The notes: generated by a model from the sequence alone, not told the origin. Shown: positions 1,447 to 53,584, counted from the first letter of the stretch. The stretch is DNA of 64,000 bases from a virus (IMGVR_UViG_3300035208_008180), one strand, 5' to 3'. A program made the numbers and translations.

Positions 1447-1806
1447 ATGAAAACTTTTCAACAATTTATGGAAATGGCTAGAGTGGCAGCCATAAAACCA
1501 GCTATCAAGTCGCAAATGAATCGAGAGATCAATGCAATTGCCAAAGGGTTTCATGATAAAATACCCCTCTCGCCAATCTTTGCCGTTCTGGAAAAACTGG
1601 GCTACCAAGCCGTGCAAGAAGATGGCACCCCGTGGTCGGGAATGCTGGTCGGCGGGGGAGAGTGCGGCAGCGAACAATCTAGAAGCCAAGTGGCCAACAT
1701 TGACATTGTTCGCAAAGAAGATAATACCCCAATGAACAATGCCCTCTACCTATCCTGGTGTAAAATGCCATCAGGCCGATATGAAGTCGTTGCATACATT
1801 AGTTAA
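1447..1806 (+). CDS. hypothetical protein with capsid-targeting-like N-terminal tag (putative internal virion protein)
   Basis: Starts MKTFQQFME; upstream ATATATA box (1421-1427) and GAGG RBS. Confidence 0.7.
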   Translation: MKTFQQFMEMARVAAIKPAIKSQMNREINAIAKGFHDKIPLSPIFAVLEKLGYQAVQEDGTPWSGMLVGGGECGSEQSRSQVANIDIVRKEDNTPMNNALYLSWCKMPSGRYEVVAYIS

Positions 1807-1807
1807 T

Positions 1808-1844
1808 AAAAAAAGCCCCGCTCATCCGAAAATGAGCGGGGCTT
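1808..1844. terminator. intrinsic terminator between convergent genes
   Basis: 13-bp stem AAGCCCCGCTCAT/ATGAGCGGGGCTT with flanking A-tract (U-tract on minus strand). Confidence 0.8.
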
Positions 1845-1866
1845 GCCTTCGGCACCGACCCAGACG

Positions 1867-3159
1867 CTATTTCTTTTTAGTAGGCTGAACCATATTCGGG
1901 TCCAACGACAAATCCTTAGCGGTCTTCGCTGTCAACAGGGCGATCAAATCAGAAGCTCCATTTTGTGCTCCTGCGGTGCCAGTTGCTCCATTTCCCATAA
2001 CAATCGACGGCACCCAACTTCCCTCATGCTTCGCAATAGCTTCGGCATAAGCCTTGTTGATTTCAACCCAAGCGGCCAATTTCTTTTCCAAAGCACCGTC
2101 AGCCTCCATCACCAATGTGCGACGTTTGGCTTCACCTTCACCCAAGGCAATTTGCTCTTTCTTTGTCATTTCGGCTGCTTGTGCTGCCAACTCGGCCACC
2201 TTCAATTCCTGGGCAGCCTTGGTTTCGGCCACGGACTTTTCCTGCTTCGCCTTAGTTTCAGCCACAGTCTTGTCCTGGTCAGCCTTGGCAACTTCCTTAG
2301 CGGCAACTGTCTTTTGCTCCCACTCAGCCTTGGCAGCATTAGCTTCACCTTGCTTCTTGGTTGTAATACATTCCTGCTCGGCTTGTTTCGCAGTAGCCAT
2401 AGCGATCTGAACTTGCATAGTCAGTTTTTGCTGCTGGCTAATTTGTTCTTCAACCTGCGGATCGTATGCAACTTCATTGATACTAAGATTAAAAACCTTA
2501 ATCCCAAATTGCTTCAAAGGACTTTCTTCTGCTCTCTTTGGCTTTCCGTCCTTATCAGTAACTAACTCAACTTTGGCAATTGTCTTAATAGCACCTGTAA
2601 GAGGGTCAGTTGCCTGCTCTTGAGTAGTCTTGGTAAGATAAACACCATTCTGGATTTGATCCTCAATCAAATTAAGCAATTCATTCCGGCGTTCGGCATA
2701 AGATTCCTTTGAACTCATGGTCGGGCCAGTCATATAAATTGACTTCTCGATGATTGTGCGAATCAATTGCTGTTCGACCGCCAAATGGCTTCCATATTGC
2801 TGATGAATACGTGTTAGATGCTCTTCATCCAATGGCATCTCCCAACTAATACCGCCTGACAGTTGGGCATGCCCACCGTCATTGAATCGGATTTTGATAG
2901 AGTTGTCTGCGGCAGCAGCCCCTTGGTCATTCTTGGCAGAGAACCAAAACTGTGACCGTCTATCATAGCAAGTTACTTTGCCGAATCCTTGATACTTCAC
3001 GCCCTGTGATGTGTACCAATCTAGTTGGCCTTTGACCGGGCTCTGAATTACCATAAGTTGTTTGGCGTCCAAGTTCTCAAAAAATCCAAACAAACTAAAA
3101 CACACAACAACACACAAAATCACAGAAACCAACAACAACAACACTTTTCTCGGGTCCAT
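1867..3159 (-). CDS. SPFH/band 7 (flotillin/prohibitin-like) membrane protein
   Basis: N-terminal TM helix, SPFH-like domain, long Ala/Glu/Lys coiled coil; start MDPRK after GGAG. Confidence 0.8.
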   Translation of the reverse strand: MDPRKVLLLLVSVILCVVVCFSLFGFFENLDAKQLMVIQSPVKGQLDWYTSQGVKYQGFGKVTCYDRRSQFWFSAKNDQGAAAADNSIKIRFNDGGHAQLSGGISWEMPLDEEHLTRIHQQYGSHLAVEQQLIRTIIEKSIYMTGPTMSSKESYAERRNELLNLIEDQIQNGVYLTKTTQEQATDPLTGAIKTIAKVELVTDKDGKPKRAEESPLKQFGIKVFNLSINEVAYDPQVEEQISQQQKLTMQVQIAMATAKQAEQECITTKKQGEANAAKAEWEQKTVAAKEVAKADQDKTVAETKAKQEKSVAETKAAQELKVAELAAQAAEMTKKEQIALGEGEAKRRTLVMEADGALEKKLAAWVEINKAYAEAIAKHEGSWVPSIVMGNGATGTAGAQNGASDLIALLTAKTAKDLSLDPNMVQPTKKK

Positions 3160-3206
3160 TGAGTTCTCTCCTTGATACGAGGGTTCAGAATAAACACTAC
3201 TACGCT

Positions 3207-3446
3207 TCATTTCATTTGCCTTTCTTCAATTTCTATTTCTGCTTGCAATGCTTTCAATTGTCTTTTCTTTTTTGCCAAATCCACCTCCTCTTTGGCTGAT
3301 GCTAATGCGGCATCAACTGTTTTGTTTTTCCGCTTAAAAATAGGAAAAGTTGGTCGGCCCAAAAGAATAGGAGCGATTACTTGGGTTATGGTAAACCCAA
3401 CTATCAACACCACAATAATAAACTGGACAGCTTCTAAAAAGACCAT
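3207..3446 (-). CDS. small membrane protein with coiled coil
   Basis: TM helix then charged helix; GGAGG RBS; upstream of SPFH gene. Confidence 0.7.
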   Translation of the reverse strand: MVFLEAVQFIIVVLIVGFTITQVIAPILLGRPTFPIFKRKNKTVDAALASAKEEVDLAKKKRQLKALQAEIEIEERQMK

Positions 3447-3471
3447 ATATTACCCTCCATTGATTCCAAAG

Positions 3472-3500
3472 ATTATAACCAATTTAGGATTTCTTTGCAA
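3472..3500 (-). promoter_or_regulatory. sigma70-like promoter
   Basis: TTGCAA-17 nt-TATAAT. Confidence 0.65.
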
Positions 3501-3551
3501 GATAAAAACCCGGCTGCACTTGCGTGCAACCGGGCTCGAAAGGAGACGCCG

Positions 3552-3980
3552 TTATTTTTCATCTAAAGAACGCAATGCTGTAGTAAGAAGGAACAAATCT
3601 ATTCTGTCATCCTGAGACCAACCAGCATCGCCCGCACCACATACGCAAACAAATTGCTCGGCAGTTGCAGCGGCAATAATATCTGCTTTTTCCTCTTCTG
3701 ATAGTTTTCTCACGCAAAAAACATCATGCATATCAAGTCTGCAACATGCACACAGAGTTTGCAAAAGCCTTGAGTTAAATTCCCCATCCTCAAATTCAAC
3801 TTGATGAATTATTTTGGATAGAATTCCTTTTGGCAACCCAATATGTTCTTCTAGTGTCGCCAATTCAACATCTTCTTTGGCTCGCTTGCGAAAAGACTCT
3901 GCAACACCTTCGCAGATTCTTTTTTTTACTCCAGGCATACCGCCGTCAAAATATTCCCAAACGCATTTTTCATCAAACAT
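3552..3980 (-). CDS. hypothetical protein, possible XRE-like HTH
   Basis: LATLEEHIGLPKGILSKII resembles an HTH. Confidence 0.45.
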   Translation of the reverse strand: MFDEKCVWEYFDGGMPGVKKRICEGVAESFRKRAKEDVELATLEEHIGLPKGILSKIIHQVEFEDGEFNSRLLQTLCACCRLDMHDVFCVRKLSEEEKADIIAAATAEQFVCVCGAGDAGWSQDDRIDLFLLTTALRSLDEK

Positions 3981-3982
3981 GG

Positions 3983-4483: not shown

Positions 4484-4485
4484 TT

Positions 4486-5078: not shown

Positions 5079-5083
5079 CCCCA

Positions 5084-5972: not shown

Positions 5973-6800
5973 TTAAATATATGCTGCAAATTTCCCTCGA
6001 ACTGCTGCCTGAACCACATCGGGTTTCACCCCCTTAGCCAGCAAATACTTTGCAAACTCCTCTGGGGTGTTTGGCTCTACTGGTTTAGTACGTAAACTTT
6101 TACGCATCTTCTCTTCTGCCACGTTCATAAGAATCTCCAAAAAACTCTTCCCTGATTCTATATCCAACCCCGATCCTCGACCCATTAGGTCCATCAATTT
6201 GAAAACAATCCATATTTTAATCTTGCGATCTGGGGCGAATTTGCCATCAATTCCAATTGATGCCTTAATGTGTCTACTAAGTCCCTTCTCACTAAACTCC
6301 ATATGTTTTGGAACTACAAACCACACAATTTCCTTATCTTCTGGTGATAGGTTGTCCAGAATAGACTGCCACTTATTGCCTAATTTTTTTATTTGCGGCT
6401 CATAATGCTCTGGGTCTTCGTGAGCATGGGCTGTCCATTTCCCTGGTCCGAAGTCAGGTGACATCATCTGTTTTACAGTGTGCCCAGGAAAATCAGACAA
6501 CGGTTTGATGGTATTATCGGGATATTTGTAGCCTGCGGTGGAGGCTTTGCCCACATCATGCAGCCAAGCAAGTATCCTCAAAAGCATTATATCCCCATCG
6601 CTGACCGATGGCAAGTTTGAAAAAGCCTCTTCTCCCCTAGCTTTCTCAAACATTTTCACAGCTACAGGCAGAGCTTTTCTAACAAGCCTTGTGTGTAAAA
6701 ACACAGACCCCTCTGGGTGCCATTGTGCGGACTGTGGCACATTTTTCAAAATATCCCGTAAGCTGCTCATTTCTAACCAATTTTTGAATTCCATTAACAT
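5973..6800 (-). CDS. HD-domain phosphohydrolase (CCA-enzyme-type HD), N-terminally tagged
   Basis: VPQ..WHPEGSVFLHT, LHDVGK, HAHE, KHM, MD motifs; starts MLMEFKNWLE. Confidence 0.8.
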   Translation of the reverse strand: MLMEFKNWLEMSSLRDILKNVPQSAQWHPEGSVFLHTRLVRKALPVAVKMFEKARGEEAFSNLPSVSDGDIMLLRILAWLHDVGKASTAGYKYPDNTIKPLSDFPGHTVKQMMSPDFGPGKWTAHAHEDPEHYEPQIKKLGNKWQSILDNLSPEDKEIVWFVVPKHMEFSEKGLSRHIKASIGIDGKFAPDRKIKIWIVFKLMDLMGRGSGLDIESGKSFLEILMNVAEEKMRKSLRTKPVEPNTPEEFAKYLLAKGVKPDVVQAAVRGKFAAYI

Positions 6801-7044: not shown

Positions 7045-8271
7045 ATGAAATATCCCAAATTCAACAAGTTTCTCGAAAGAAAAGACCCAGAGTTGGTTCG
7101 CAAACCCAAAATTATCAAAACAGGCGACAAGCTAACTGGAGCCGATGATCTTTGCGGCGAACCCAATAAGCCACCCAAAGAAGCCAAGACACACAAAAAT
7201 ATAAAAAAAGTAGCCGATGAGCAACCTCAGGTCAAAGAAGGATTATGGGCTAAGTTTTTGGAAAAAAAGCAGGCAAGCTCTGTGGTAGAAAAACCAGCCA
7301 CGGAAATTATTGCTGACTATCCCTTCAAGCCACCCGTTGCTCCTCCCGAAGCCAAGACCAAGGGAAAAAATTGGGATACTAAGGCTCCCAAAGCCAGCAA
7401 ACCCGCTGCCTATAAGCAAGGCACAGATGCTAAGCCCAAAAATAGTGATGAAGGACTGGGTAACTTAGGGAGTATTCCCCGAGAAGAAATTAAACTCAAG
7501 GCAGGCGATTCACCACATATACCGGGCGGAAAAAGTGTTGGGGATTACACTACAAAAACAGAGACCTTCTTAAAGAAAACAAAAGGCATGCCCCTGAGCG
7601 AATTCACCCAATACATGATTAAAGAAGAGCGATCTGTTGAGGGCGTTCATCAAGCAGAAGTGCCACAAGCTATTAAATACATTGCTTCAGTAGCCAACAA
7701 TGAAAACATTTTGCGAGATTTGGTTGTGGCGTTGAGACAAAAAAAATTAATCGGCAGCCTGATGGAAATGTTGATGGAATATCCTGAGTCTTATCGATCC
7801 CTTACTAATCTTTTGGGAGAAGAACAAAAAGGCTCTATGCGTTGCAATGCATTAGTACGAGCCATGAATGAAATCGTTGGTCCTCCTATTGGAATAGACA
7901 ATATAGGAGACGATGAAGAAGTCACCCGTCGCATTGGTGATGATGGCGAACCAGAAGATTTTGAAGACGATGACGAAGATTATCCAGAGGATGATGATGA
8001 TTTTGAAGATGAGGATGAACTAGGTGACGAAGATGAATTAGGCGATGAGGATGAACTAGGTGACGAAGATGAATTAGGCGATGAGGATGAGCTAGGTGAC
8101 GAAGATGAGTTAGGCGATGAACTAGGTGGTGAAGATGAATTAGGCGGCGAAATGCCTGGAATGGGGAAACACATAATGGGCATGATGGGCAAACATATGG
8201 GAATGCATCGAGGAAAGTTTGCAATGGACCATCTTATTCATGCATTAAATCAATATATGAAAAGAGATTAA
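7045..8271 (+). CDS. basic/acidic low-complexity protein, tagged; possible prohead core/internal protein
   Basis: Starts MKYPKFNKFLE; Lys/Pro-rich N-half, DEDELG repeats near C-terminus. Confidence 0.65.
   Translation: MKYPKFNKFLERKDPELVRKPKIIKTGDKLTGADDLCGEPNKPPKEAKTHKNIKKVADEQPQVKEGLWAKFLEKKQASSVVEKPATEIIADYPFKPPVAPPEAKTKGKNWDTKAPKASKPAAYKQGTDAKPKNSDEGLGNLGSIPREEIKLKAGDSPHIPGGKSVGDYTTKTETFLKKTKGMPLSEFTQYMIKEERSVEGVHQAEVPQAIKYIASVANNENILRDLVVALRQKKLIGSLMEMLMEYPESYRSLTNLLGEEQKGSMRCNALVRAMNEIVGPPIGIDNIGDDEEVTRRIGDDGEPEDFEDDDEDYPEDDDDFEDEDELGDEDELGDEDELGDEDELGDEDELGDEDELGDELGGEDELGGEMPGMGKHIMGMMGKHMGMHRGKFAMDHLIHALNQYMKRD
8008..8145 (+). repeat. 18-bp coding tandem repeat (DEDELG), alternating A/B units
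   Basis: GATGAGGATGAACTAGGT / GACGAAGATGAATTAGGC alternate for six units plus two degenerate units. Confidence 0.95.
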
Positions 8272-8730
8272 ATGAACACATCATTCAATGAATGGCTGAA
8301 ACTTCATGAAAAGTGGGATATCATAGGCCCAAACACTCCCGTTCCTAAAGACACAGATGAAGACGACGATCCCTGGGAAGATTGGGGCGACGATGAGGAC
8401 TGGGAGGATGAAGAGCGACGAATGCGAAGAGGGCACGCATTAACTGGAGTTCGAACACCAGTAAGTGATTTGGGAACCACTCAAGGAAGAGCCTTGGGAA
8501 AAGATTCTCGACTTCCCCGTGGAATGCACATAGTAGACCCTGATAAAGAAGAGCTACAAAATGCTAAACAATACCTTGGGGCAGAATATTACAGGCTAAG
8601 AAACAAATTAGAAAAAGGTGTCGCCACCCCAGAAGAAAAACATCTACTGAGGACATTAGCCAGAAAACACATAGAAGGAATCTACCACCGTAAAAAACCT
8701 GCTACTGTGCGTAAATTCACATCCTTCTAA
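8272..8730 (+). CDS. hypothetical protein, tagged
   Basis: Starts MNTSFNEWLKLHE; acidic patch. Confidence 0.65.
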   Translation: MNTSFNEWLKLHEKWDIIGPNTPVPKDTDEDDDPWEDWGDDEDWEDEERRMRRGHALTGVRTPVSDLGTTQGRALGKDSRLPRGMHIVDPDKEELQNAKQYLGAEYYRLRNKLEKGVATPEEKHLLRTLARKHIEGIYHRKKPATVRKFTSF

Positions 8731-24828: not shown

Positions 24829-25137
24829 TTATTTGCCCATTATGCCAGCACCACGTAATTTCCATTTATTATTTGCAGAAAATGGACTATGATCGGGCTG
24901 TTTATATTTGGTGCCTAAAGATAAAGGACTAGAATCTGGAAGTTTCCATTTTCCACCACCGGAGAAACCGGGTTTGGGGGGCTCTAATGGAACACCGAGA
25001 CCACGGGGAGACATGGGGCTTGTCGGCACTTTATTTTTAGTGCCTTTGACACCAGCATCTTGTTTTACCTGAGCCACATCGGCTGCTACTCCTTGTGGCA
25101 ATGCCATATCAGCTTCTAACCAAGACCTGAAGCTCAT
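24829..25137 (-). CDS. Pro/Gly/Lys-rich protein, tagged
   Basis: Starts MSFRSWLE. Confidence 0.6.
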   Translation of the reverse strand: MSFRSWLEADMALPQGVAADVAQVKQDAGVKGTKNKVPTSPMSPRGLGVPLEPPKPGFSGGGKWKLPDSSPLSLGTKYKQPDHSPFSANNKWKLRGAGIMGK

Positions 25138-25376
25138 TTCTTTTTCATCTTTTTGCCATTGGCATTTTGATTAAATTTAGTAGCTGCATTTGCCACCTTA
25201 GCCGCCGCATCAGAATCACCTGTGGATTGGGCAGCTATAGATTTTTGAGCTAATATTTTCTTTGCGTCTGCCTCTGGATTTGTGCCTTGCTTAAGAGCAT
25301 TCTGCGTAGCTAATGCCAAATCATTGGCTAAATCATCTTTTCCAGTCTGTTCACACCATTGTTTATATGTTTTCAT
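25134..25376 (-). CDS. small Ala/Lys-rich protein, tagged
   Basis: Starts MKTYKQWCE; CTACATA 8 nt upstream. Confidence 0.6.
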   Translation of the reverse strand: MKTYKQWCEQTGKDDLANDLALATQNALKQGTNPEADAKKILAQKSIAAQSTGDSDAAAKVANAATKFNQNANGKKMKKK

Positions 25377-36366: not shown

Positions 36367-37034
36367 TGGCAAAAATGCAATTCAAACAATGGTTATTACA
36401 TGAGCGTTACGGTCAATACAACACTAACAACACCATCATTGTTGATGTTCAGCCCATGTATGCACAGCACATGAATTTTGGCATTAAAAACTTCGCTGAA
36501 TTTTTAAAACAAACCTTAAAAAATCGAAAAGTAATATATTTTTTTAACGGAGATTCTATTGGTTCCAATGATAACAAAGAGGAAATTTCCAATTGGCTTG
36601 CAGAATCAGCCAGAGAAAATACGCCATATCCAGAAGACGACGATGAAGAAATATACTGGCAAGATCACGAAGACACCTACTCATTGTTCCATAACCGATG
36701 CCTATGGTATGATAAAGGTTATGGCTTCTTTAGGTCATGGATGGATCATGGAGTCAGTGATGCCACTATTATTAAAACAATTAGATATATGATAATGAAA
36801 CGCATCAATGACTCTAGAGACTTGGGAGAGGAAGAGCTTCAACTTATTACAAATGGAGAAGACATCCCATTGCACGACCCTTTGTTTATACCCTCCATTC
36901 CTCTGAATATTTTAAAACAATTCAGTGGAGCATTCCTTTGTGGAGGTGGTAAAAATGAATGCTTAAAAGAAGTGACACTTCTCATGAATGCTCTAAATAT
37001 AAAATATACAATTCTTTCAGAATTTACATATTAA
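36366..37034 (+). CDS. isochorismatase/cysteine-hydrolase-like protein, tagged
   Basis: IIVDVQP, DKGYG, LCGGGKNECL resemble the Asp-Lys-Cys triad; MQFKQWLLHE start. Confidence 0.6.
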   Translation: MAKMQFKQWLLHERYGQYNTNNTIIVDVQPMYAQHMNFGIKNFAEFLKQTLKNRKVIYFFNGDSIGSNDNKEEISNWLAESARENTPYPEDDDEEIYWQDHEDTYSLFHNRCLWYDKGYGFFRSWMDHGVSDATIIKTIRYMIMKRINDSRDLGEEELQLITNGEDIPLHDPLFIPSIPLNILKQFSGAFLCGGGKNECLKEVTLLMNALNIKYTILSEFTY

Positions 37035-38136: not shown

Positions 38137-38364
38137 ATGAAAACCTTTGCCCAATGGCTGGAGCATAATTACAACAACTCTGGCAATAAAATGGTACAGA
38201 AATTATGGAAATTCCAGGCAGAAAACCCGAACTCCTCATTTAGAGAATTCTGGCTGTTGCACGGCAATAACGACAAGAACGACCGTGAATTATGTCAGCA
38301 AGAATTCTATGGAATGAAAAACACACATGGGCAGCATGTTTCGGCAGCCGACTTGTTGAGGTAA
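38137..38364 (+). CDS. small hypothetical protein, tagged
   Basis: Starts MKTFAQWLE; ATATATA 5 nt upstream. Confidence 0.65.
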   Translation: MKTFAQWLEHNYNNSGNKMVQKLWKFQAENPNSSFREFWLLHGNNDKNDRELCQQEFYGMKNTHGQHVSAADLLR

Positions 38365-38365: not shown

Positions 38366-39115
38366 ATGAATTTTAAATTGTGGATAGAGAATGACGAAGA
38401 ATACGATACCTTTGGCGATCCCAAAGAATGGCATATCGGACAACTAGGCATCCTTGACGAATTTGGGCTAAAAGATTTCGCCGTCATTCAAGTTATCCGA
38501 TTTGAAGATGTTCCACAGGCTGATCCTGAATATTATAAAATGAAAGACCGCAATACTGTCATCTCTCTCAATAAATTTGGTGGCTCAACCTACAAAAGAG
38601 GTGAAAGTGTTCCTGTTAAAATTATTCAAGCATTCGGAAGTATATCAAAAAGTCACAAAGTTCATTTCTATGTCGGTGCCCAAAACCTCTATCGCACCAT
38701 TGATGACCTTATAAAAAAAGAAATGAAAGTGCTTTACCCAGACCTACTTATACAATTTTGGAACTCTCCACAATATCGGGCACTTATTACTGAATTTCCA
38801 CAACTAAAAATAAAAAACCAATCCCCTCTGGATCAGATTCAATACCAAGTCTACGACATTCAGGGATATACAGTCTATGTGATACCAGAGCCCCGAGTTC
38901 TAAAAAGACAAGCAGAATATCGAGCGTCTGGATATCCCCACCCTTTGCACGCCTACTACTTTGCCATTCCTGAGTTGAAGACTAGATCGCAAGACGAAAA
39001 AACAAGCCAATGGCTAAGGACGCAAAAAATGGGTGAAAATGGCATGTTCACCAGCGAACGAGAAGCACTAACTGGGGCGGAAAAATATATTAACTATTTA
39101 TTTTATGGAGAATGA
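38366..39115 (+). CDS. hypothetical protein, tagged
   Basis: Starts MNFKLWIE; GAGG RBS. Confidence 0.7.
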   Translation: MNFKLWIENDEEYDTFGDPKEWHIGQLGILDEFGLKDFAVIQVIRFEDVPQADPEYYKMKDRNTVISLNKFGGSTYKRGESVPVKIIQAFGSISKSHKVHFYVGAQNLYRTIDDLIKKEMKVLYPDLLIQFWNSPQYRALITEFPQLKIKNQSPLDQIQYQVYDIQGYTVYVIPEPRVLKRQAEYRASGYPHPLHAYYFAIPELKTRSQDEKTSQWLRTQKMGENGMFTSEREALTGAEKYINYLFYGE

Positions 39116-42642: not shown

Positions 42643-42671
42643 ATAATATCACATATAAATTACTTTGTCAA
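42643..42671 (-). promoter_or_regulatory. near-consensus sigma70-like promoter
   Basis: TTGACA-17-TATTAT with TGn extension. Confidence 0.75.
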
Positions 42672-42848
42672 CTTCTTTTTCTTTTTCTTTTTGAAAAAAT
42701 CATCTTCATCAGTGTTAAACATCTGCGGGAATTTTCTTTGTATCATTGGCAAAGAAGGTCTAGCAAAAACAGCTATGCAACTCGTGCCAGTTGCATTTTC
42801 TTTTATAATTTCTTTTTCAATCCAATTTTTAAAGTTTATAGAGAGCAT
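42660..42848 (-). CDS. small basic protein, tagged
   Basis: Starts MLSINFKNWIE; poly-Lys tail. Confidence 0.6.
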   Translation of the reverse strand: MLSINFKNWIEKEIIKENATGTSCIAVFARPSLPMIQRKFPQMFNTDEDDFFKKKKKKKLTK

Positions 42849-43574: not shown

Positions 43575-44117
43575 CTATTGTATAGGGGTTGCTTGAGGGA
43601 TGCCGCCTGGACCGGGTAGACTTCCAGGTATTCCACCACCGGCACCAGGACCAGTTGCCTTATCTTGGAACATGACTTTTTTGAACCAGTCATAATCAAC
43701 ATACTGCGGTATTCGTTTAGTGGCTCGGGCACCTTGGGGAACAATTTTCCACTTCATTCCTTGCCTGCCTGTTAAATCTCGTAGTCCTTTAGTTCCCGCT
43801 TTTGTAGTGGGCAAGAAATCAATTTTCATTCCCTTAATTTCTTCTCCGTCATTATCAACAGCTTTTACGGTAAAAGCTCGCAAGTTAGAAAGATTTCCGC
43901 CAGAGGGACCGATCCATGATCCAACGAACGTCTGCCCTCTTAGATCGTTAGGCTCAATACCTAATTCATAAGCTAAATTATTCCAGTCGGGCATTGGTTG
44001 GCCTCCACCCGGCATTCCTCCCGGCATTCCTCCCATAGGCGGTGCTCCTTGCATCCCTCCCATTCCAGGTGGCGGGGGTGGTCCTTGTTCCATAAATTGT
44101 CGAAAAGATAATGTCAT
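43575..44117 (-). CDS. Pro/Gly/Met-rich protein, tagged
   Basis: Likely true start MTLSFRQFME at 44117; low-complexity termini. Confidence 0.7.
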   Translation of the reverse strand: MTLSFRQFMEQGPPPPPGMGGMQGAPPMGGMPGGMPGGGQPMPDWNNLAYELGIEPNDLRGQTFVGSWIGPSGGNLSNLRAFTVKAVDNDGEEIKGMKIDFLPTTKAGTKGLRDLTGRQGMKWKIVPQGARATKRIPQYVDYDWFKKVMFQDKATGPGAGGGIPGSLPGPGGIPQATPIQ

Positions 44118-44136
44118 TATAAAGATATATACCTCT
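44118..44136. promoter_or_regulatory. 19-bp divergent spacer with central TATATA box
   Basis: TATAAAGATATATACCTCT between two back-to-back ATGs of tagged genes. Confidence 0.55.
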
Positions 44137-44574
44137 ATGAACACAACATTTGAACATTTTGTCGAAGAAAAAGCCCAAAACAACAAAGAGCAAATAAAAG
44201 CTATGTTAGGCTCCAATGATTTTGTTTTCTTCTTTGAAAAAAACAAAGAAATTTTTGGTGCCCCCGAAGAGAGCCGACTTATGTTTGCCCGCATGAAAAA
44301 CCCAGACCCCGAAGATAATGACTGGGTTAAAGAAGCTAATTTCAGCGGATTAAACCTCAATAGAGCCCTAAAGGGAGAGAAAACAGAAAGTCTATTTTCC
44401 CATACTGATTTGACCAAAATCAAAATATTGGACCAAGAAGAAGCATATGATAAATTGTCCAGATTAACTTCGGATACAGATAAGATAAAAACCGTTCTTT
44501 CTGACGATGATAATCCGCACCCAGAAGCTCCTGATGCGGCTCCAGGCATCCAACAATTAAAAGACAAAAAATGA
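44137..44574 (+). CDS. hypothetical protein, tagged
   Basis: Starts MNTTFEHFVEE. Confidence 0.65.
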   Translation: MNTTFEHFVEEKAQNNKEQIKAMLGSNDFVFFFEKNKEIFGAPEESRLMFARMKNPDPEDNDWVKEANFSGLNLNRALKGEKTESLFSHTDLTKIKILDQEEAYDKLSRLTSDTDKIKTVLSDDDNPHPEAPDAAPGIQQLKDKK

Positions 44575-45377
44575 ACTTTAGGCTATTTTTAGAGCGAGAA
44601 GAGGGTGCTATAGAATGGGATACATATTATCCCAAGTGGACTCCACGACAACTTGGCGATAGGGGCATGATATCCGCATACGTTTCTAATAAACATATCA
44701 GCATTGACCAAAGCCCCTATCATCCGATGTTGAAAAAAGCCCTAAGGATATTGCTGCGACAAAAGCCACATTTAGCAAACAAGCCCTTGGATTTTGATGG
44801 TTGGTCACCAGGAACATTACAACAATTCTTATATAGCTCAGAACCTATTGCCCCTAAAGATACACTCCCACAATTTATGTATCACGGCACATCCCTCCAT
44901 CGCTGGGAACACATTAAAGAAGATGGCTTAAAACCCCTAATTGCGAGTGGTGGAGAATATGGGGCAGAGCCAATGAGTGCTCCACTTACCAACCCTAATA
45001 ATGTTTACTTATCTGCAACTTTTGGAGCAGCTACCAGATTGGCCGCTTACGACGCTTCCAAAAAAGGAACAGGCGATGTTCCTGTTGTGTTGAAAATTAA
45101 CACCAAACAACTTGATCCTCAAAAAATCAGACCTGATGAAGAGTCTCGTGCTACAACATGGCAAAAAAGTCTGCATGGCTTAAACACTATCGCCTACGAA
45201 GGCGAGATACCACCACAATCCATAGAACTCTATAAAGCTTGGAATCAACAAACGGATAAGTGGGAAAACCCAGGACAGTGGCTAGAGCCAACTGATTTTA
45301 TAGCTCAACAAATGCTTCACAGGACAGGATATAAAGACATTCCCAACAGCACCGGCAAATATAAGTGGGCTAAATAG
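44571..45377 (+). CDS. ADP-ribosyltransferase-fold protein (H-Y type, Tpt1/PARP-like), tagged
   Basis: MYHGTS...I...GL.P, VYLS, VVLKI, IPP..I; starts MNFRLFLE. Confidence 0.7.
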   Translation: MNFRLFLEREEGAIEWDTYYPKWTPRQLGDRGMISAYVSNKHISIDQSPYHPMLKKALRILLRQKPHLANKPLDFDGWSPGTLQQFLYSSEPIAPKDTLPQFMYHGTSLHRWEHIKEDGLKPLIASGGEYGAEPMSAPLTNPNNVYLSATFGAATRLAAYDASKKGTGDVPVVLKINTKQLDPQKIRPDEESRATTWQKSLHGLNTIAYEGEIPPQSIELYKAWNQQTDKWENPGQWLEPTDFIAQQMLHRTGYKDIPNSTGKYKWAK

Positions 45378-45572: not shown

Positions 45573-46229
45573 ATGACATTGCCATTTGAAAACAATAAAG
45601 ACGTAAGAAAGTACCAGTGTTTTGTCTGTGGAGTGCAGTTCTTAGAACTCAACGAAATGACAGAGCACATCAAAGAAAAACACCAAGAAGGCAGAGATTA
45701 TGTGCTTTGTCCTTTGCTCTATTGCAAATGTTGCGTTAGGGATTTAGTTCATCATTTTAAAGCACGTCACCCTTCTCAGCCCCTGCCCAAAAACAGACAA
45801 ATGAAAGCTATTGTATGGAAAGATTTTACCGCCCAAGGAACGGCAAAAAAGAAAAAACAAAGATTTAAAGAGGGTTGGTATGTTTCTACAAAAATGAATA
45901 AGCAATTTTATTTTAGAAGCGGTTGGGAAGAAACTGTATTCGAATGTCTGGACCAAATGAATGAAGTAGCCGCTTATGAAGCAGAGCCTTTTAAAGTTCC
46001 CTACATCTGGGAAGGCACTCAGCACGAATACAATCCCGACATTCTGGTGGTGTTTAATGATGGGCGTAAAGAGGTTTGGGAAATAAAACCATCAGATCAA
46101 ACCTCTTTACAACAAAATAAAAATAAATGGCATGCAGCTAATGAAATGTGTAAAGCTAGAGGATGGGAATTTATTGTAATGACAGAGAAGGGAATCAATC
46201 AATTAAAGAAAAGGGTTGGAAAGAAATGA
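45573..46229 (+). CDS. C2H2 zinc finger plus TnsA-N/T4 gp4-like PD-(D/E)xK endonuclease
   Basis: CFVC..F.....M..H...KH; RSGWE, Y.PD, WEIKP, K..AA...C...GW.F...TE. Confidence 0.8.
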   Translation: MTLPFENNKDVRKYQCFVCGVQFLELNEMTEHIKEKHQEGRDYVLCPLLYCKCCVRDLVHHFKARHPSQPLPKNRQMKAIVWKDFTAQGTAKKKKQRFKEGWYVSTKMNKQFYFRSGWEETVFECLDQMNEVAAYEAEPFKVPYIWEGTQHEYNPDILVVFNDGRKEVWEIKPSDQTSLQQNKNKWHAANEMCKARGWEFIVMTEKGINQLKKRVGKK

Positions 46230-46804
46230 CTTTTCGCATCTGGTTGGAACAGAATCGTCCACAAGTTGAGCCGAATTTTTCAATGCAAGTCTGGGATGCC
46301 TGCATTAAGCACGTTCCTGTTGGTACTACTATTTACCGAGGGTTTAGAATCCATAAAGATTTGCGAAAAATGACCATTCGACAAATTCTCTCACAATCTT
46401 TTAAAAGCAATGCAAAACCCTTCGATCCGTGGACTTTGGATTTTGCCGTAGCTCAAAGATTTGCTGCCGGGGCTCACAGCAATGCTGATGGAACATCAGG
46501 AAGAATGGAAGACACAGCCAGAGTAATTGTATCAGCTAAAATTGTCCAACATAGAAATGTAATAGATTTGAAACAATTTGGCGACAAAATAATGGGCCAC
46601 AACGTAAGCAAAGGCAGTGGCATTAACACCTATTGGCAACCTAGAATGATTGGCAAAGCAACAATCGATGATCGTGATGTGGAAAATGAAATACCCATTT
46701 TAAGAACCGCCTATGCTAACCCTCAACTATTTCCTTTAACTGGATATTGGACAGAAGAAAACGGACAATGGGTGCAAGGAAACAAACCAGCAGCCTTATC
46801 TTAA
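46226..46804 (+). CDS. ADP-ribosyltransferase-like protein (R-S-E type), tagged
   Basis: IYRG, PWT....A..FA, ENEI; starts MTFRIWLE. Confidence 0.55.
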   Translation: MTFRIWLEQNRPQVEPNFSMQVWDACIKHVPVGTTIYRGFRIHKDLRKMTIRQILSQSFKSNAKPFDPWTLDFAVAQRFAAGAHSNADGTSGRMEDTARVIVSAKIVQHRNVIDLKQFGDKIMGHNVSKGSGINTYWQPRMIGKATIDDRDVENEIPILRTAYANPQLFPLTGYWTEENGQWVQGNKPAALS

Positions 46805-47115
46805 AACCCATCAATAAAAATAACAGTCTCTACACCTTCTTTGCTTTCTAAATATACTGTATCTGGCTCTATTGTGTTATCTATCACAAGCTCCAATCGC
46901 CGTTCTCCAAATCCTGTTTCTAATTGCTCCTCAAAACTTGGCATACAATAAAAAGTAGAGGCAATATCACTGGTAGTTCTGAGTTTGGTGGTGCTGAAAC
47001 CACAACGCCCTTTGATGAAATAATGCAATGCATTAATTTTTTCAACTTCAGTGGCGGGTGGATGGTCAACAACTATATTAAAGTCATAAGTTAAAGCGTT
47101 CATGATCTTAGCCAT
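46801..47115 (-). CDS. hypothetical protein
   Basis: overlaps the end of the nucleotidyltransferase gene. Confidence 0.5.
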   Translation of the reverse strand: MAKIMNALTYDFNIVVDHPPATEVEKINALHYFIKGRCGFSTTKLRTTSDIASTFYCMPSFEEQLETGFGERRLELVIDNTIEPDTVYLESKEGVETVIFIDGF

Positions 47116-48317
47116 TCCCTAAATCCCATCTTACGCAACATTTCCTTGGTGTTATGTTGCATAATATGTTGCCCAATTTCTTTGCCTTGTAATTCGGCTG
47201 CCCCTGGAACTTCATCCCTGTTCATCAATTGGTGTGTTCGCAACTGTTGAATAGCACGAGTATCCAGACCATGCAACTGACTCCATGCTTCCAAATCCTC
47301 AGGTGACATATCCCGCTGCCCTTTTCTCAGACTCCACAAGAAGGCAGGATGCTCTTTTAGCTTATCTTGAATATTGGGCAAATGAAGCAAATTGACCAAA
47401 TACACCACATTGTCCACTTCATCATTAGTGTATTTTAATTGATTTAATTTTCTTCTGATCTTTTCCACATCATTGAGCCGCAACAGATGGGCAACCAATA
47501 TAACAGGATTCTTGGTCTCCACATAATCATGGCTGACCACTAACCCTGGAAATACATATTTTTGCAACAATCCTAATTGATGATAGAGACTTACATAACC
47601 CACAACTGATTTAGCAGATTTTAAACCCTTAATAAATTCGTCTCTGACCCGCTCGGGTGCCACAGCCACGCCATTATCGCTTGCCAGCCCATTATTGACT
47701 CGTTTTTCAATAGCCGCACGAGTTGCTTCATCAATGCCTCTGATGTCGCCATGATTTACACGGCAATAGAACCGCACATATCTTAAAACTCTCAGAGCAT
47801 CCTCGCCAAACCGTTGGTCGGGATCACCCACAGTTTTAACACGTCGCTCTTTCAAGTCTTGTAATCCGCCAACCAAATCAACCACTTCATGACTGTCTAA
47901 ATCATAATAAAGAGCGTTGATTGTTAAATCTCTTCTTTCGGCATCGTCTTGGATATGGGAAAATTTATCAGCTACTTGACGACTGCCAGAATCCTTGCGA
48001 AAAGTGGCAATTTCATAATCTTCATTACCAATTGAGGCTATAACCACCCCGAATTGATTTCCTACAGCACCTTTGGTATGGTTAATGCCACCAGCTTTAA
48101 GAATTTCCATTACTTCTGTGGGCTGTGCATTCGTGGCTAAATCGAAATCTTTGGGCTGTTTTCCCAATACTGCATCTCGTACTGCACCTCCCACCAAATA
48201 TAGATGTTTGCCCGATTTTTTAAATACTCTATGAATAACATGAATATCCTCTGGCAAATTGATTGACAGGTGCATTCGCACTTCTTTACTTTCTAAAAAT
48301 TGCATAAAACTAACCAT
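47100..48317 (-). CDS. cca: class II tRNA nucleotidyltransferase (CCA-adding-like), tagged, no HD domain
   Basis: VGGAVRD, DFD, EIATFR, RRDLTINA, EDALR.LR, ER...E; starts MVSFMQFLE. Confidence 0.88.
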   Translation of the reverse strand: MVSFMQFLESKEVRMHLSINLPEDIHVIHRVFKKSGKHLYLVGGAVRDAVLGKQPKDFDLATNAQPTEVMEILKAGGINHTKGAVGNQFGVVIASIGNEDYEIATFRKDSGSRQVADKFSHIQDDAERRDLTINALYYDLDSHEVVDLVGGLQDLKERRVKTVGDPDQRFGEDALRVLRYVRFYCRVNHGDIRGIDEATRAAIEKRVNNGLASDNGVAVAPERVRDEFIKGLKSAKSVVGYVSLYHQLGLLQKYVFPGLVVSHDYVETKNPVILVAHLLRLNDVEKIRRKLNQLKYTNDEVDNVVYLVNLLHLPNIQDKLKEHPAFLWSLRKGQRDMSPEDLEAWSQLHGLDTRAIQQLRTHQLMNRDEVPGAAELQGKEIGQHIMQHNTKEMLRKMGFREWLRS

Positions 48318-48336
48318 ACCTTATATATAATATAAA
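48318..48336. promoter_or_regulatory. 19-bp divergent spacer with central TATATATA box
   Basis: ACCTTATATATAATATAAA between two back-to-back ATGs of tagged genes. Confidence 0.55.
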
Positions 48337-48981
48337 ATGAACTTTAGAAATTGGATAGAGCACAAATGGTACGAATTTAAAGATACCGTGGAATTATATC
48401 ACGGCACCTCTAGTGCCTTGCTTCCAATTATTAAAACGAATGGATTGGTGCCACCTGATGAGTGTTTAGAGTCATATGCTATTAAAATAATCAAATCATA
48501 TGGAGTTGCCGCAAGCCCGCAATTAATGGAATGGATTCACAAATACGCAATTTCATCAAGAGCTAATGAACCAAACAACAAAATAGCTAACGTAATTTAT
48601 TTAACTCCCAAATTCGAGAATGCAAAAAACTACGCAAAATCCACCCATAAATTTGGGGGAGAAATGGCGGCTGACATTTGGCGAGCTATCAATGTAATTG
48701 AAAGCAAAAAAAGAGGTTTGCCAAAAATGCAGGAAATTATACCTCCCATTTACAAAGAATCTCATCCTGTAGTATTAGAAGTAGAAATCCCATCTAAATG
48801 GATGAATACATATCATGATTTAGCACAACGATATAAAGATGCATTAGACTACTGGGCAACCTTGAAATCTAAGCCAGATGTTCACGATTTTATGGAGAAA
48901 GAATTTGGTCGCTTTGAAATAAGAGTAGAAGAGACTATTCCTGCGTCAATGATAAGAAAAATTCACGCAATAATGTCCTGA
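48337..48981 (+). CDS. ADP-ribosyltransferase-fold protein (H-Y-E type), tagged
   Basis: LYHGTS...I...GL.P, IYLT....A..YA, VVLEV, FEIRV...IP; starts MNFRNWIE. Confidence 0.7.
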   Translation: MNFRNWIEHKWYEFKDTVELYHGTSSALLPIIKTNGLVPPDECLESYAIKIIKSYGVAASPQLMEWIHKYAISSRANEPNNKIANVIYLTPKFENAKNYAKSTHKFGGEMAADIWRAINVIESKKRGLPKMQEIIPPIYKESHPVVLEVEIPSKWMNTYHDLAQRYKDALDYWATLKSKPDVHDFMEKEFGRFEIRVEETIPASMIRKIHAIMS

Positions 48982-50161: not shown

Positions 50162-50190
50162 GGCACCTCCTTGCAGATTATTTATACTTG

Positions 50191-50724: not shown

Positions 50725-50733
50725 TTTTATTCC

Positions 50734-51339
50734 TTATGTTTTACTTGCGATTATAGACTGCACTTTTTCTTGTTGTGCGTTTTTTACGACTTCCCGCTCT
50801 TCCATTCTTTGTTCTAAAATATCACCCATTATGGCACTATTGCGTATATATTCCGAAGCTCTTTGTAGAGTTTGATAATCCTCAGCGAAATAAGAAAGAC
50901 CAAAATTACACCTAAAGCACAACAGCCCTCTAATTTTTCCACAGTTATGATCGTGATCTACATGTAATCGCTTGCCTTCCTTAGGCGGCTTACCACAAAT
51001 AGCACACCCACCGCCTTGTTGCTCAAGCATAAAACTATAATCATCTATAGTCAACCCATACTGTCTGAGTTTTTTGATATGGTTGTAGTCTTTGTCTTTT
51101 TTGGCTACCCACTCTTTTTGAACTTGCTTCTTGCGTTGCTTGTTTTTTTTGGTCCACTCTACACAATTATCCTTCTGTTTCTTTAAATACTCTGGATTAT
51201 TTTGCTTAAGCCATTTGTCATAACAACTCTTGCACAACCCTCTTGCCCAAACTGGCCTATCGCTATGCACAGAACACATTTTACTGGCTTTTATATCTTG
51301 CTTCAATCCACCCTGTTTGTTTTTAATTTTCTTTAACAC
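50734..51339 (-). CDS. endonuclease VII-like protein
   Basis: YGLT..DY..M...Q.G.CAIC, VDHDH..G..RGLLC..CN..L. Confidence 0.88.
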   Translation of the reverse strand: MLKKIKNKQGGLKQDIKASKMCSVHSDRPVWARGLCKSCYDKWLKQNNPEYLKKQKDNCVEWTKKNKQRKKQVQKEWVAKKDKDYNHIKKLRQYGLTIDDYSFMLEQQGGGCAICGKPPKEGKRLHVDHDHNCGKIRGLLCFRCNFGLSYFAEDYQTLQRASEYIRNSAIMGDILEQRMEEREVVKNAQQEKVQSIIASKT

Positions 51340-51400
51340 AACTTCCCTTCTGCCAATTGTTTGCCTTATGTATTATATAGTAATTGGCAGAAATATTTTT

Positions 51401-51787
51401 TCATCTATTTTTCAAAATATTTGGAAGATTGTCTAGTTCTTTTGGCAAAATGCCCGCATTTATCATCTCTTGAGTTTCTAATAAACAGCAAGCGTTCCAA
51501 ATCACCGCACTCAGGTGATCTTCGTCTTGTAGTCCTGCTGTAAATTTAAATGCGTGCCGAAGCATAGAATCCAAATACCTGCTCAGGGGAATACCCTTTG
51601 CCCAATTTGAATCTCCATATTTCCTAGCCCCGTTTTCAAAATGTTGTGCCAGTCGGGTAATCGCATAATATGGCAACAAATCAAACCTTCCCTTGCCATC
51701 TTGGGTGTCCCTAACAGCCCCGGTGCCAAACTCTTGTCTAGCCCCTGAATCCATTACCTTGTCGAATTTAGTTGGTGTCTCGCTCAT
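51401..51787 (-). CDS. dATP/dGTP diphosphohydrolase (DUF5664)
   Basis: GAVRD...GK.RFDLLP, GA.KY...NW.KG, RH, EDHL....WN. Confidence 0.85.
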   Translation of the reverse strand: MSETPTKFDKVMDSGARQEFGTGAVRDTQDGKGRFDLLPYYAITRLAQHFENGARKYGDSNWAKGIPLSRYLDSMLRHAFKFTAGLQDEDHLSAVIWNACCLLETQEMINAGILPKELDNLPNILKNR

Positions 51788-51844
51788 GTTAAACCTCACT
51801 TGTAATCTCTACATACTATACTATAATGTGATGCAGAGGTCAAT

Positions 51845-52180
51845 ATGTTAAAAAAGAAAAAATTAAAACCAATTTGTAAAAATTGTAGTTTATTTGATCG
51901 AAACAACAGCATATGCAGAGTGGTTATTTTATCCGAAGGTGAACGCATCAACATTCCTGTTGACCCCGATGATAAGTGTTTTTTCAACAATAAGTTTACT
52001 GCTCTTGAAGAAAAAGCAGGGAAAATTGTTGAAGAACAATTTAAGCCAGAAATTGAACAAGTCCGATGGTGGGTAGAAGACCCAGAAACTGGACAACAAA
52101 CTAAGGGAAACGGCGTTGTAAAAATGCAATATCCAAAAAACTTTTTCTCTCCCGAGGATAAAGATGTTCGAAAAAATTAA
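51845..52180 (+). CDS. hypothetical protein with Cys cluster
   Basis: GAGG RBS; CKNC...C...C. Confidence 0.6.
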   Translation: MLKKKKLKPICKNCSLFDRNNSICRVVILSEGERINIPVDPDDKCFFNNKFTALEEKAGKIVEEQFKPEIEQVRWWVEDPETGQQTKGNGVVKMQYPKNFFSPEDKDVRKN

Positions 52181-52802
52181 ATACAAATACTGGGAAATAG
52201 TGCCGTATGATTGGCGACCTTGGCAAATGTGGTATCGCTTCAAGTCCTTTATTTGGACTCGCCCCACAGTTATCAAGCCTCGCTATTTACCTTATACTTG
52301 GTGCGACAGAATGGAAATGCTGCCCCATATGATGTTTGAGATATTATCTCAATTCATTGAACAAGAGTGCTCGCCTGGGCATGTGGATTGGGAAGCTTCC
52401 GATCACAAGATTCGTGTGGTAAAAGACGATTCTATTGATCCCGGTAGCGGCCTTCCATTGGACCCCGGCAAAATGGTCAATGTTCGTGACGAAATGCAGG
52501 AACTTTATGATTGGTGGCATAATGTTTATATGAAAGAATATAAAGAGGTAGAAGAAATTCTTTGGGCAGAAGCCAGAAAACACGAGCCAATTGACCGATG
52601 GGAAGAAGACGATGATAAAAAAATGGCTGGACTCTACGGCGAAACCCTTTATAAATGGGAGCAAAATTTTAAAACCACCGAAGATGAAGAAATTTATCAC
52701 GATTGTTTAATGGCACTCAACAAATTAGAAGCCAATCAACACAAAGCATTATTAGCAAGGATGCACAGAATAGTCAATCTGACTGGTTATTTGTGGACGT
52801 AA
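52164..52802 (+). CDS. hypothetical Trp-rich protein
   Basis: ORF, GAGGA RBS. Confidence 0.65.
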   Translation: MFEKIKYKYWEIVPYDWRPWQMWYRFKSFIWTRPTVIKPRYLPYTWCDRMEMLPHMMFEILSQFIEQECSPGHVDWEASDHKIRVVKDDSIDPGSGLPLDPGKMVNVRDEMQELYDWWHNVYMKEYKEVEEILWAEARKHEPIDRWEEDDDKKMAGLYGETLYKWEQNFKTTEDEEIYHDCLMALNKLEANQHKALLARMHRIVNLTGYLWT

Positions 52803-52817
52803 TATCTATATACTTCT

Positions 52818-53171
52818 ATGAGTTTTAGACAATTTGTAGAAGATGCTGCGGCTTGGGATGCTTTTCAAGACGTTTTCTTTGTTGGAGAATACGAAGGGCA
52901 AGCAAGTGATTTCTATTGCTGGCTTCGCCAACGCTGGAGTGCCAATCAATCCCCTCAAGATTATGATTACAAAGGATTGGAAAGATTGTTTGCTGATTGG
53001 AAAAAAAGCACAGTTCGTGGTGCATGGTGTGCAAAAATGGATCGAAGTCGAGATCGCAAACGAAGAAAAGACTTCGGCCCAGGCAAATATTGGGCACCTA
53101 CATCAGCAGGTGTCTTCCTAAATAAAAACTTTGTAAAAGGATGGAGAGGTATCAATCCAGCAAACCCATGA
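52818..53171 (+). CDS. hypothetical protein, tagged
   Basis: Starts MSFRQFVE; CTATATA 5 nt upstream. Confidence 0.65.
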   Translation: MSFRQFVEDAAAWDAFQDVFFVGEYEGQASDFYCWLRQRWSANQSPQDYDYKGLERLFADWKKSTVRGAWCAKMDRSRDRKRRKDFGPGKYWAPTSAGVFLNKNFVKGWRGINPANP

Positions 53172-53584
53172 AATTCAAACAATGGCTTGAATCCATATAC
53201 TATCACGGCACCACACCCGAAAACGCCGAATCTATCCTAAAAAATGGCATCGACCCAGATCGCTATAAAAGCGGGATGTTCAGAGGATTCTACCTTACAC
53301 CAAACCCAACTTACTTCAATGGCTTTAGCGGGCCAAAGAAAACAATTTTGGCCATAGAAATTGATGACTCGCAAATACTCGATGTAGAAAGCGTCAAGGA
53401 TGAGGATTTGCTGCCAATTGATCCTCACTTCAAAATGATGAGCCCAATGTATAAAAATACTATGATTATGAAGTTGGCTCTTGAAAAAGGATATTCTGGC
53501 GTCAAAAACGGAAAAGAAGTTGTTCTTTTTACTGACAGAGCAATCCGCTCTATTCGACCCATAAATTCCAGTCATTCAAAGTAG
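53168..53584 (+). CDS. ADP-ribosyltransferase-fold protein (PARP-like H-Y-E), tagged
   Basis: YYHGT...A.SI...GI, GFYLT, GY.GV....EVVLF; starts MKFKQWLE. Confidence 0.7.
   Translation: MKFKQWLESIYYHGTTPENAESILKNGIDPDRYKSGMFRGFYLTPNPTYFNGFSGPKKTILAIEIDDSQILDVESVKDEDLLPIDPHFKMMSPMYKNTMIMKLALEKGYSGVKNGKEVVLFTDRAIRSIRPINSSHSK

Follow-up and report, generated by a model that had tools for sequence, protein, structure and literature searches.

A short N-terminal tag resembling the T4 capsid targeting sequence on dozens of unrelated proteins of an uncultured, T4-related megaphage

In a 64,000-nucleotide stretch of DNA from the virus IMGVR_UViG_3300035208_008180 (the window), 18 otherwise unrelated proteins begin with a common peptide of 8-10 residues at the extreme N-terminus, M-x-F-[KR]-[QE]-[WF]-[LIMV]-E in consensus, which we refer to as the tag. 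An earlier note on this DNA had listed these 18 N-termini with their positions and strands and had proposed that they load enzymes into the phage head for delivery at infection; every one of them is found where it was placed. Our analyses make it rather likely that the tag is this phage clade's version of bacteriophage T4's capsid targeting sequence, deployed on a scale far beyond that of T4, and the phage probably carries a very large, diverse set of proteins, loaded in advance, to be injected. The evidence read here consists of the tag itself, its position, selection at the protein level, the unrelatedness of its carriers, its retention in orthologues, the T4-type head genes of the same phage and the match to T4 residues of mapped function, from which we infer docking, cleavage, packaging and injection.

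The tag is strongly concentrated at protein starts. Genes were called with a scorer of coding potential and ribosome sites that is blind to the motif, and the pattern given in the earlier note matches 45 of the 1022 proteins called on the contigs of the megaphage to which the window belongs, against 2.2 expected from the rate within proteins, whereas 500 shufflings of residues 2-16 gave 2.0 +/- 1.4 matches with a maximum of 8. A stricter pattern has 36 matches against 0.3 expected, and the N-terminal enrichment is 20- to 120-fold. Proteins of C44 (76 kb) and C137 (145 kb), two other low-GC, phage-like elements of the same bin that lack an S77 protease and are circular because they overlap themselves, served as controls, and none of their 399 proteins matches, so that the concentration at N-termini on which the earlier proposal rested is borne out. 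A position weight matrix built from the pattern matches and used at a threshold score of at least 9 recovers 66 distinct starts of open reading frames (ORFs), including all 18 listed ones, against 5 of 3098 internal Met positions. Freed of the Met anchor, the matrix finds 24 internal sites among 162,695 positions; no fewer than 5 of these sites are mis-called starts, which leaves a tally of about 60 N-terminal against about 19 true internal sites. Three of the 18 starts, at 38137(+), 44117(-) and 46226(+), lie inside longer mechanical ORFs for which the gene caller had chosen the longer upstream start. Of 65 tags, 54 have their first aromatic residue at position 3 or 4; among the 45 pattern matches this residue is Phe in 44 and Tyr in one, and the residue three positions on is Trp in 31 and Phe in 14. 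All tags have the aliphatic residue that follows, and the Glu comes directly after it in 57% (W-L-E), one residue later in 15% (L-x-E) and two residues later in 12%, being absent from the remaining 15%.

The constraint on the tag lies on the protein level, not on the nucleotide sequence. Its Phe codons are used nearly as in the rest of the genome (TTT/TTC 42:20, against 44:18 expected), all six Leu codons occur, and Glu is encoded by GAA and GAG in a ratio of 30:7, against 26:11 expected, with a slight bias to A-rich codons of the kind often seen where genes begin; because synonymous codons follow genome usage and the alternation between Trp and Phe needs two base changes, we conclude that selection acts on the peptide. 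What follows the tag is unrelated from carrier to carrier, as the earlier note had stated: with the first 14 residues removed, the 66 proteins fall into 63 clusters at the level of BLAST. Gly, Pro and disorder-prone residues are more frequent at positions 11-46 of tagged proteins than of other proteins (p ~1e-3), the net charge of tagged proteins is slightly more basic than that of others, and no tagged protein has a membrane-like segment. The genes also differ from their surroundings in orientation. The preference for the plus strand that had been noticed in the window (12 of 18) extends to the contig that contains it, where 28 of 49 tagged genes lie on the plus strand against 115 of all 603 genes (p = 5e-10). 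The homologues of the T4-core replication proteins UvsX, gp41, gp46/47 and Dda are all untagged, in keeping with the remark in the earlier note that replication genes lack the peptide.

The phage that encodes these proteins is uncultured, T4-related and roughly 590 kb in total. The window corresponds to bases 128001-192000 of a 340-kb contig of 40% GC (C200), which comes from a mixed bin (G000) holding a bacterium of 65% GC, the megaphage contigs and the two low-GC circles used as controls. The end of C200 and the start of C242 (97 kb) share a 127-nt overlap inside a collagen-like gene with Gly-Tyr-Ser repeats. The tetranucleotide signature of C200 is matched by C226 (r = 0.98) and C102 (r = 0.95), and these two are joined end to end with C63, C179 and C184; the signatures of the latter three are weaker (r = 0.55-0.82), and they are placed in the same phage because of these links, as contigs that probably belong to it. 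C200 itself starts with a run of AGTTCA hexamers.

A T4-type head is encoded on C242, which carries a gp23-type major capsid protein and a prohead protease of the S77 (gp21) family (Pfam PF03420, 89.5 bits) whose His and Ser motifs align with those of T4 gp21; the gp21-like protease that the proposal in the earlier note entails is thus present. BLAST against all T4 ORFs also matched a T4-type portal (gp20), large terminase (gp17), tail sheath (gp18) and a gp25-like protein, besides the replication homologues named above. The capsid protein has the sequence LLE/N, and that of the complete 511-kb relative G003 has LME/N, aligned at the Glu65 cleavage site of T4 gp23. Between the protease and capsid genes (C242 19620-20543) lies a gene for an acidic, scaffold-like protein of 307 aa, which we read as helical; it is kept in G003 at 42% identity and contains 14 [LI]-x-E sites against 6.7 expected (z = 3.4), and it has no Pfam family and no BLAST match to gp22. 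The nearest record is LR756511, an uncultured phage of 595 kb whose capsid protein is 75% identical, whereas cultured phages reach only about 30%. LR756511 also has a second, diverged ORF resembling the S77 protease (242621-242989(-), 34.8 bits), against a single one seen in the focal phage.

The T4 signal is textbook knowledge, a 10-residue address for a handful of head proteins that is now an engineering tool. In the T4 record, IPII and IPIII start with MKTYQEFIAE and IPI with MKTFKEFTST. Amber-suppressor mapping of IPIII by Mullaney and Black placed targeting mainly at residues 4 and 7 and processing at residues 8 and 10 (reviewed by Kuhn and Thomas, PMC9026906), and the four conserved positions of the tag (aromatic, aromatic, aliphatic, Glu) correspond to these same residues, 4, 7, 8 and 10. 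The same spacing is found in T4 Alt (MELITELFDE) and gp24 (MAKINELLRE), which lose N-terminal propeptides too. One tagged protein of the window (1447-1806, MKTFQQFMEMARVAAIK...) appears to resemble T4 IPII beyond the tag, with 14 of 37 residues identical (38%) over residues 1-37 and an E-value of 7e-6 in a single BLASTP comparison without database correction. The likeness to the T4 system that the earlier note had pointed out is therefore upheld by the four positions, by one apparently IPII-like cargo protein and by the head genes: in both systems a peptide of about 10 residues stands at the extreme N-terminus of otherwise unrelated proteins, with an aromatic/hydrophobic pair three residues apart followed by an aliphatic residue and Glu, in a phage with a gp21-family protease and a gp23-type capsid. 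There are also clear differences. T4 has three proven internal proteins with the signal, whereas here there are about 65 predicted carriers per genome, among them enzymes of 200-440 residues; Trp is preferred at the second aromatic position, the Glu usually comes one residue earlier, and many tagged genes look leaderless behind an A/T box, unlike the T4 ip genes with their ordinary leaders and Shine-Dalgarno sites. A scan of T4 with a loose DNA pattern was uninformative (202 matches against 129 in the control), and a matrix scan of the whole T4 sequence was used instead.

The tag is not exclusive to this phage. G003 has 23-26 tags and LR756511 has 32, and IMG/VR contains more than 116 loci, a lower bound, that match a degenerate DNA pattern encoding M-[KN]-F-[KR]-x-W-[LIMV]-E. 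Among the matches listed, 108 are unique and 64 are plausible ORF starts; all ten contigs checked have genome sizes of 440-520 kb implied by CheckV, contigs of 572 and 459 kb are found as well, and the three longest of the ten encode the S77 protease. Homologues of the 66 tagged proteins number 9 in G003 and 17 in LR756511, about the same share as for other proteins, and they mostly keep the aromatic core, even where the matrix misses them. For example, the orthologue of the CCA-type enzyme in LR756511 starts MRTTFLEFMGLKE at 32% identity, the homologue of the 7045-8271 protein in the same phage begins MDLKSFSEFL, and the G003 homologue of the 44571-45377 protein carries the tag MNFKVWLE. On the other hand, the weakly tagged 44137-44574 protein has untagged homologues in both G003 (E = 5e-13) and LR756511 (E = 3e-20). 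As judged from natural diversity, namely the 63 body clusters and the homologues that have the tag, lack it or bear another one in other lineages, the tag is portable across unrelated proteins. Turnover of tagged genes did not differ significantly from that of other genes (p = 0.31 in G003, 0.43 in LR756511), a comparison that is insensitive because these relatives are too distant, with homologues for 19-25% of all proteins.

The nature of the cargo is best defined for the 47100-48317 protein, a solid case, by homology, of a nucleotidyltransferase of the CCA-adding/poly(A)-polymerase type (Pfam PolyA_pol PF01743, E = 1e-35, score 123 bits, cut-off 23; E = 1e-30 against CCA enzymes of solved structure). 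Its homology to the solved enzymes starts only at residue 23-29, aligned to bacterial residue 3-11, and the tag is therefore an add-on; the earlier note had asked whether cellular homologues lack it. The 44571-45377 protein appears Tpt1/KptA-like at threshold (Pfam PF01885, score 26.8 bits, cut-off 26). The 48337-48981 protein is probably an enzyme of the ADP-ribosyltransferase (ART) superfamily of the H-Y-E type: it has no Pfam match, but a YHGT motif is conserved, Y88, E194 and R196 are invariant among 7 homologues in a YHGT...Y...E-x-R pattern, and the top Foldseek rows for its AlphaFold2 (AF2) model are all ADP-ribosyltransferases (Tpt1/KptA, pertussis toxin S1, DarT), with weak scores (E ~0.008, template-modelling score ~0.3). 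In this model (predicted local distance difference test, pLDDT, 76) the tag forms a detached helix of residues 3-10 at a pLDDT below 50, and the domain begins at residue 17. Two distant homologues of this protein begin with other short peptides of similar spacing, MKLVELFE and MRLIDLTE, which is what one would expect of a tag that goes with the phage rather than with its cargo; one distant homologue with a different N-terminal peptide (P0006) lies on a contig of 853,705 bp. For the 5973-6794(-) protein, an HD domain is a lead only, from ESM Atlas feature matches to HD-domain clusters at 0.92-0.93. The enzyme cargo described in the earlier note is thus firm for the tRNA nucleotidyltransferase, at the Pfam threshold for the Tpt1/KptA-like protein, dependent on weak fold matches and the H-Y-E pattern for one ART-like protein and a lead for the HD domain, whereas its cysteine hydrolase was not located and most carriers have no family. 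Indeed, most tagged proteins match no Pfam family, and a comparison of ten tagged window proteins with PHROGs yielded a single family, of unknown function. Beyond the window, the carriers include a NUDIX protein, a D12 DNA methyltransferase with a weak tag and two sub-threshold J-domain proteins, and variant tags are found on another protein of the PolyA_pol type and on a 2H phosphoesterase resembling Acb1. This phosphoesterase, of the anti-CBASS family (C242 28428-28961(-), Pfam E = 5e-11), has the N-terminus MLTWQQYLE, in which the aromatic residues are Trp and Tyr. Three paralogues on C200 (7639-8046(-), 15342-15530(+) and 59475-59729(-)) have the tag followed by an LYP-x-SYG/LYPxxY motif, and both are kept in their LR756511 homologues.

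Many tagged genes have an unusual start. Of 63 tagged genes, 14 have an A/T box (TATATAA or CTATATA; ATAAATA in relatives) that ends 3-7 nt 5' of the ATG, compared with 18 of the other 959 genes (p = 5e-10), and Shine-Dalgarno-like sites are rarer before tagged genes (31% against 60%). In G003 the box precedes 6 of 23 tagged and 31 of 882 other genes, and in IMG/VR, among the matches listed, the same arrangement occurs at 17 of 64 starts. Boxes of the same kind lie farther upstream of the portal-protease-capsid operon and of other structural operons. Because the box stands directly 5' of these tagged genes, their transcripts would begin with the AUG or right beside it, and by this analysis about a fifth of the tagged genes are probably leaderless. 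The spacing presumably fits a -10 element of the TATAAATA type, as in T4 late promoters, which would put the transcription start on the A of the ATG or beside it. The members of two divergent tagged pairs (44117/44137 and 48317/48337) are exactly 19 nt apart with boxes in both directions, and on C242 (94614-94647) another divergent pair has its ATGs 34 nt apart with A/T boxes facing both ways; these spacers look like compact bidirectional promoters for leaderless mRNAs. Other upstream signals occur in these phages. In the megaphage the motif TTTCCTGTACATTGG precedes 56 genes, none of them tagged, and sigma-70-like GTTTACAA ... TGAAGTATAATG is enriched in upstream regions, while G003 has a different motif, TTAGTTATCCATAAG, about 100 times upstream of genes.

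Together, these data suggest a mechanism in which the tag would form a short amphipathic N-terminal helix, linked flexibly to the cargo, that docks on the core scaffold of a T4-type prohead. Cleavage by the gp21-family protease after the Glu of the tag would follow, and the mature cargo would stay in the head with the DNA and enter the host at infection. In a second layer, a late-type A/T promoter box and the tag may together form a portable cassette of about 40 bp. In its most general form, that in T4-core megaphages of about 450-600 kb such a cassette (A/T box, leaderless AUG and eight tag codons) makes any acquired gene a late, head-packaged and injected effector, with 25-65 pre-loaded proteins per phage, tRNA-repair, NAD/ADP-ribose and nucleotide enzymes among them, and with little detectable sharing between relatives, the proposal is tentative and we lean somewhat against it.

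Several observations weigh against a capsid targeting role. None of the head-module proteins is tagged, and the scaffold-like protein lacks a tag-like repeat (best matrix score 1.8) and is enriched in L-x-E, not in L-E. The Glu mostly follows the aliphatic residue directly, with the L-x-E spacing of T4 in only about 15% of tags, and the 15% counted above as lacking a Glu have none within three residues. In relatives, a few homologues have no tag or begin precisely behind it. Searches with phmmer for a late sigma factor of the gp55 type, using T4 gp55 and its neighbours against three megaphages, found none, and because of this the word late is used for the A/T box by analogy. The proven tags of T4 score only 7.4 on the matrix, below gp61.1 (16.5) and UvsW.1 (12.3). 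The former (NC_000866 18966-19130(-)) starts MKTFKEFIKED; the latter corresponds to the final 76 codons of the annotated uvsW ORF (114210-114440(+)), starting MLLEFKQFLYE, a C-terminal part which we take to be a separate protein. To our knowledge, neither is a T4 head protein, and the motif alone is therefore no proof of packaging.

These two T4 proteins also lend some weight to the main rival explanation, in which the tag docks on another shared partner, such as a chaperone or hub, an assembly factor of the tail or baseplate, a modifying enzyme or a protease that times protein lifetime, and in which the likeness to T4 is that of a generic amphipathic helix. The Glu spacing, unlike that of T4 in most tags, would agree with such a partner, as would four successive tagged genes that are co-oriented with baseplate and tail genes in their operon and not in the head operon, although this co-orientation counts in favour of capsid targeting too. 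We nevertheless regard this explanation as unlikely, since no candidate partner gene lies consistently beside the tagged genes, which are scattered over more than 400 kb, and the conserved positions are exactly those of T4 targeting and processing. The similarity to IPII, moreover, appears to reach past the tag; the tag and the S77 protease occur in the same genomes, and the two phage-like contigs without the protease have no tag.

A role of the first codons in the translation of leaderless late mRNAs, with the signal carried by the RNA or by the nascent peptide on the ribosome, appears considerably less probable still. It would account for the association of tagged genes with the A/T box and their shortage of Shine-Dalgarno-like sites, for the same arrangement in G003 and among the IMG/VR matches listed, and for the mild A-rich codon bias of the tag, but about three quarters of the tagged genes have no box, many being in operons or having Shine-Dalgarno sites and yet carrying the tag, and untagged genes that look leaderless exist. 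Apart from the A-rich bias, synonymous codons are genome-like, the substitutions are conservative (W/F, L/I/M/V, K/R), and the T4 internal-protein genes bear their signal behind normal leaders and Shine-Dalgarno sites. That the peptide is conserved while the nucleotide sequence is not also argues against a historical remnant, whereby recombination into a few ancestral internal-protein genes would have preserved their 5' end without a present function; the same can be said of the retention of the core in orthologues at 30-50% identity, across phages that share a fifth to a quarter of their proteins. We give this last explanation very little credence, even though 39 of the 66 tagged genes adjoin another tagged gene and the internal-protein loci of T-even phages are recombination hot spots with a conserved 5' end (PMC9026906).

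If the tag is a capsid targeting sequence, its cargo would have counterparts in other systems. T4 Alt, which is loaded into the core and injected (PMC9026906), is likewise a NAD-using enzyme of the ART superfamily whose short N-terminal peptide has the same hydrophobic spacing, whereas the ART-like proteins here are putative enzymes, small (138-268 aa) and of the H-Y-E/Tpt1-DarT-like and not the Alt/VIP2 kind. In the phiKZ-like phage SPN3US, many internal head proteins are cut after Glu by a gp21-related protease, and their propeptides are thought to target the prohead (PMC5694885). This Glu-specific processing is shared with the scheme proposed here, but the propeptides there are 80-130 residues long without a common 10-residue peptide, in another phage lineage. 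Head delivery of ART, Nudix, 2H phosphoesterase and Tpt1/KptA effectors, the same kinds of cargo, has already been proposed for proteins fused to MuF or portal domains and for polyvalent proteins (Iyer et al. 2022, PMC9503650), although there the effector is fused to a folded structural domain or a giant polyprotein, whereas here it is encoded by a separate, short-tagged gene. In the literature on the tag, capsid targeting in huge phages and leaderless late genes, we found no published account of a short tag on dozens of huge-phage genes or of its leaderless arrangement, and the leaderless A/T-box arrangement of tagged genes is new here. If capsid targeting is correct, some of the unexplained genes of huge phages would make up a first-strike toolkit that arrives together with the DNA, virion cargo in metagenomic phages could be predicted from the tag by a simple sequence rule, and the tight layout of promoter and tag would explain the gain and loss of cargo sets. 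Capsid targeting predicts that the mature proteins begin after the Glu, that the transcripts are late and leaderless and that the tag and the T4 signal can replace each other.

The tagged genes of the window are collected in Table 1, with the two divergent spacers and one possible variant tag.

Table 1. Tagged genes and associated spacers, with positions counted from the first base of the window and scores on the tag matrix.
Positions	Strand	N-terminus and product	Basis
1447..1806	+	MKTFQQFME..., 119 aa, IPII-like	matrix 17.1; no Pfam family
5973..6794	-	MEFKNWLE..., 273 aa, HD-domain lead	matrix 21.4; no Pfam/PHROG family
7045..8271	+	MKYPKFNKFLE..., 408 aa	matrix 15.4; no Pfam/PHROG family
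8272..8730	+	MNTSFNEWLKLHE..., 152 aa	matrix 14.9; no Pfam/PHROG family
24829..25137	-	MSFRSWLE..., 102 aa	matrix 19.7; no Pfam family
25134..25376	-	MKTYKQWCE..., 80 aa, directly upstream of the 24829..25137 gene	matrix 16.7; CATAGATAAG box just 5' of ATG
36375..37034	+	MQFKQWLLHE..., 219 aa	matrix 21.6; Pfam sub-threshold match only
38137..38364	+	MKTFAQWLE..., 75 aa	matrix 18.1
38366..39115	+	MNFKLWIE..., 249 aa	matrix 19.5; no Pfam/PHROG family
42660..42848	-	MLSINFKNWIE..., 62 aa	matrix 21.8
43575..44117	-	MTLSFRQFME then Pro/Gly-rich linker, 180 aa	matrix 14.5
44118..44136		19-nt spacer of divergent tagged pair, overlapping A/T boxes TATAAAGATATATACCTCT	read directly
44137..44574	+	MNTTFEHFVEE..., 145 aa, weakly tagged	matrix 9.2, weakest of the 18
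44571..45377	+	MNFRLFLE..., 268 aa, Tpt1/KptA-like at threshold (ART superfamily)	Pfam PF01885; PHROG 13493
46226..46804	+	MTFRIWLE..., 192 aa, start overlaps end of TnsA-like endonuclease gene	matrix 21.5; no family
47100..48317	-	MVSFMQFLE..., 405 aa, CCA-adding enzyme/poly(A) polymerase family nucleotidyltransferase	Pfam PolyA_pol
48318..48336		19-nt spacer ACCTTATATATAATATAAA of divergent tagged pair, TATATA box 3-5 nt 5' of each ATG	read directly
48337..48981	+	MNFRNWIE..., 214 aa, probable ART-superfamily enzyme (LYHGTSS ... Y ... FEIRVEE)	7-homologue alignment, AF2, Foldseek
52818..53171	+	MSFRQFVE..., 117 aa	matrix 16.1; CTATATAC box 4 nt 5' of ATG
53168..53584	+	MKFKQWLESIYYHGT..., 138 aa, inside operon, without own box	matrix 20.9; no Pfam/PHROG family
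55921..56277	+	MRTFFESIQ..., 118 aa, possible variant tag, below threshold, DUF192	Pfam E = 2e-17; ATATATAAC box 6 nt 5' of ATG

For the gene that ends at 5973(-), the start at 6800 (MLMEFKNWLE) and the second Met at 6794 are equally possible. The untagged gene at 45573-46229(+), which combines a zinc finger with a TnsA-like/endonuclease I-like domain, has a TATATATA box 4 nt 5' of its ATG, and its end overlaps the tagged start at 46226.

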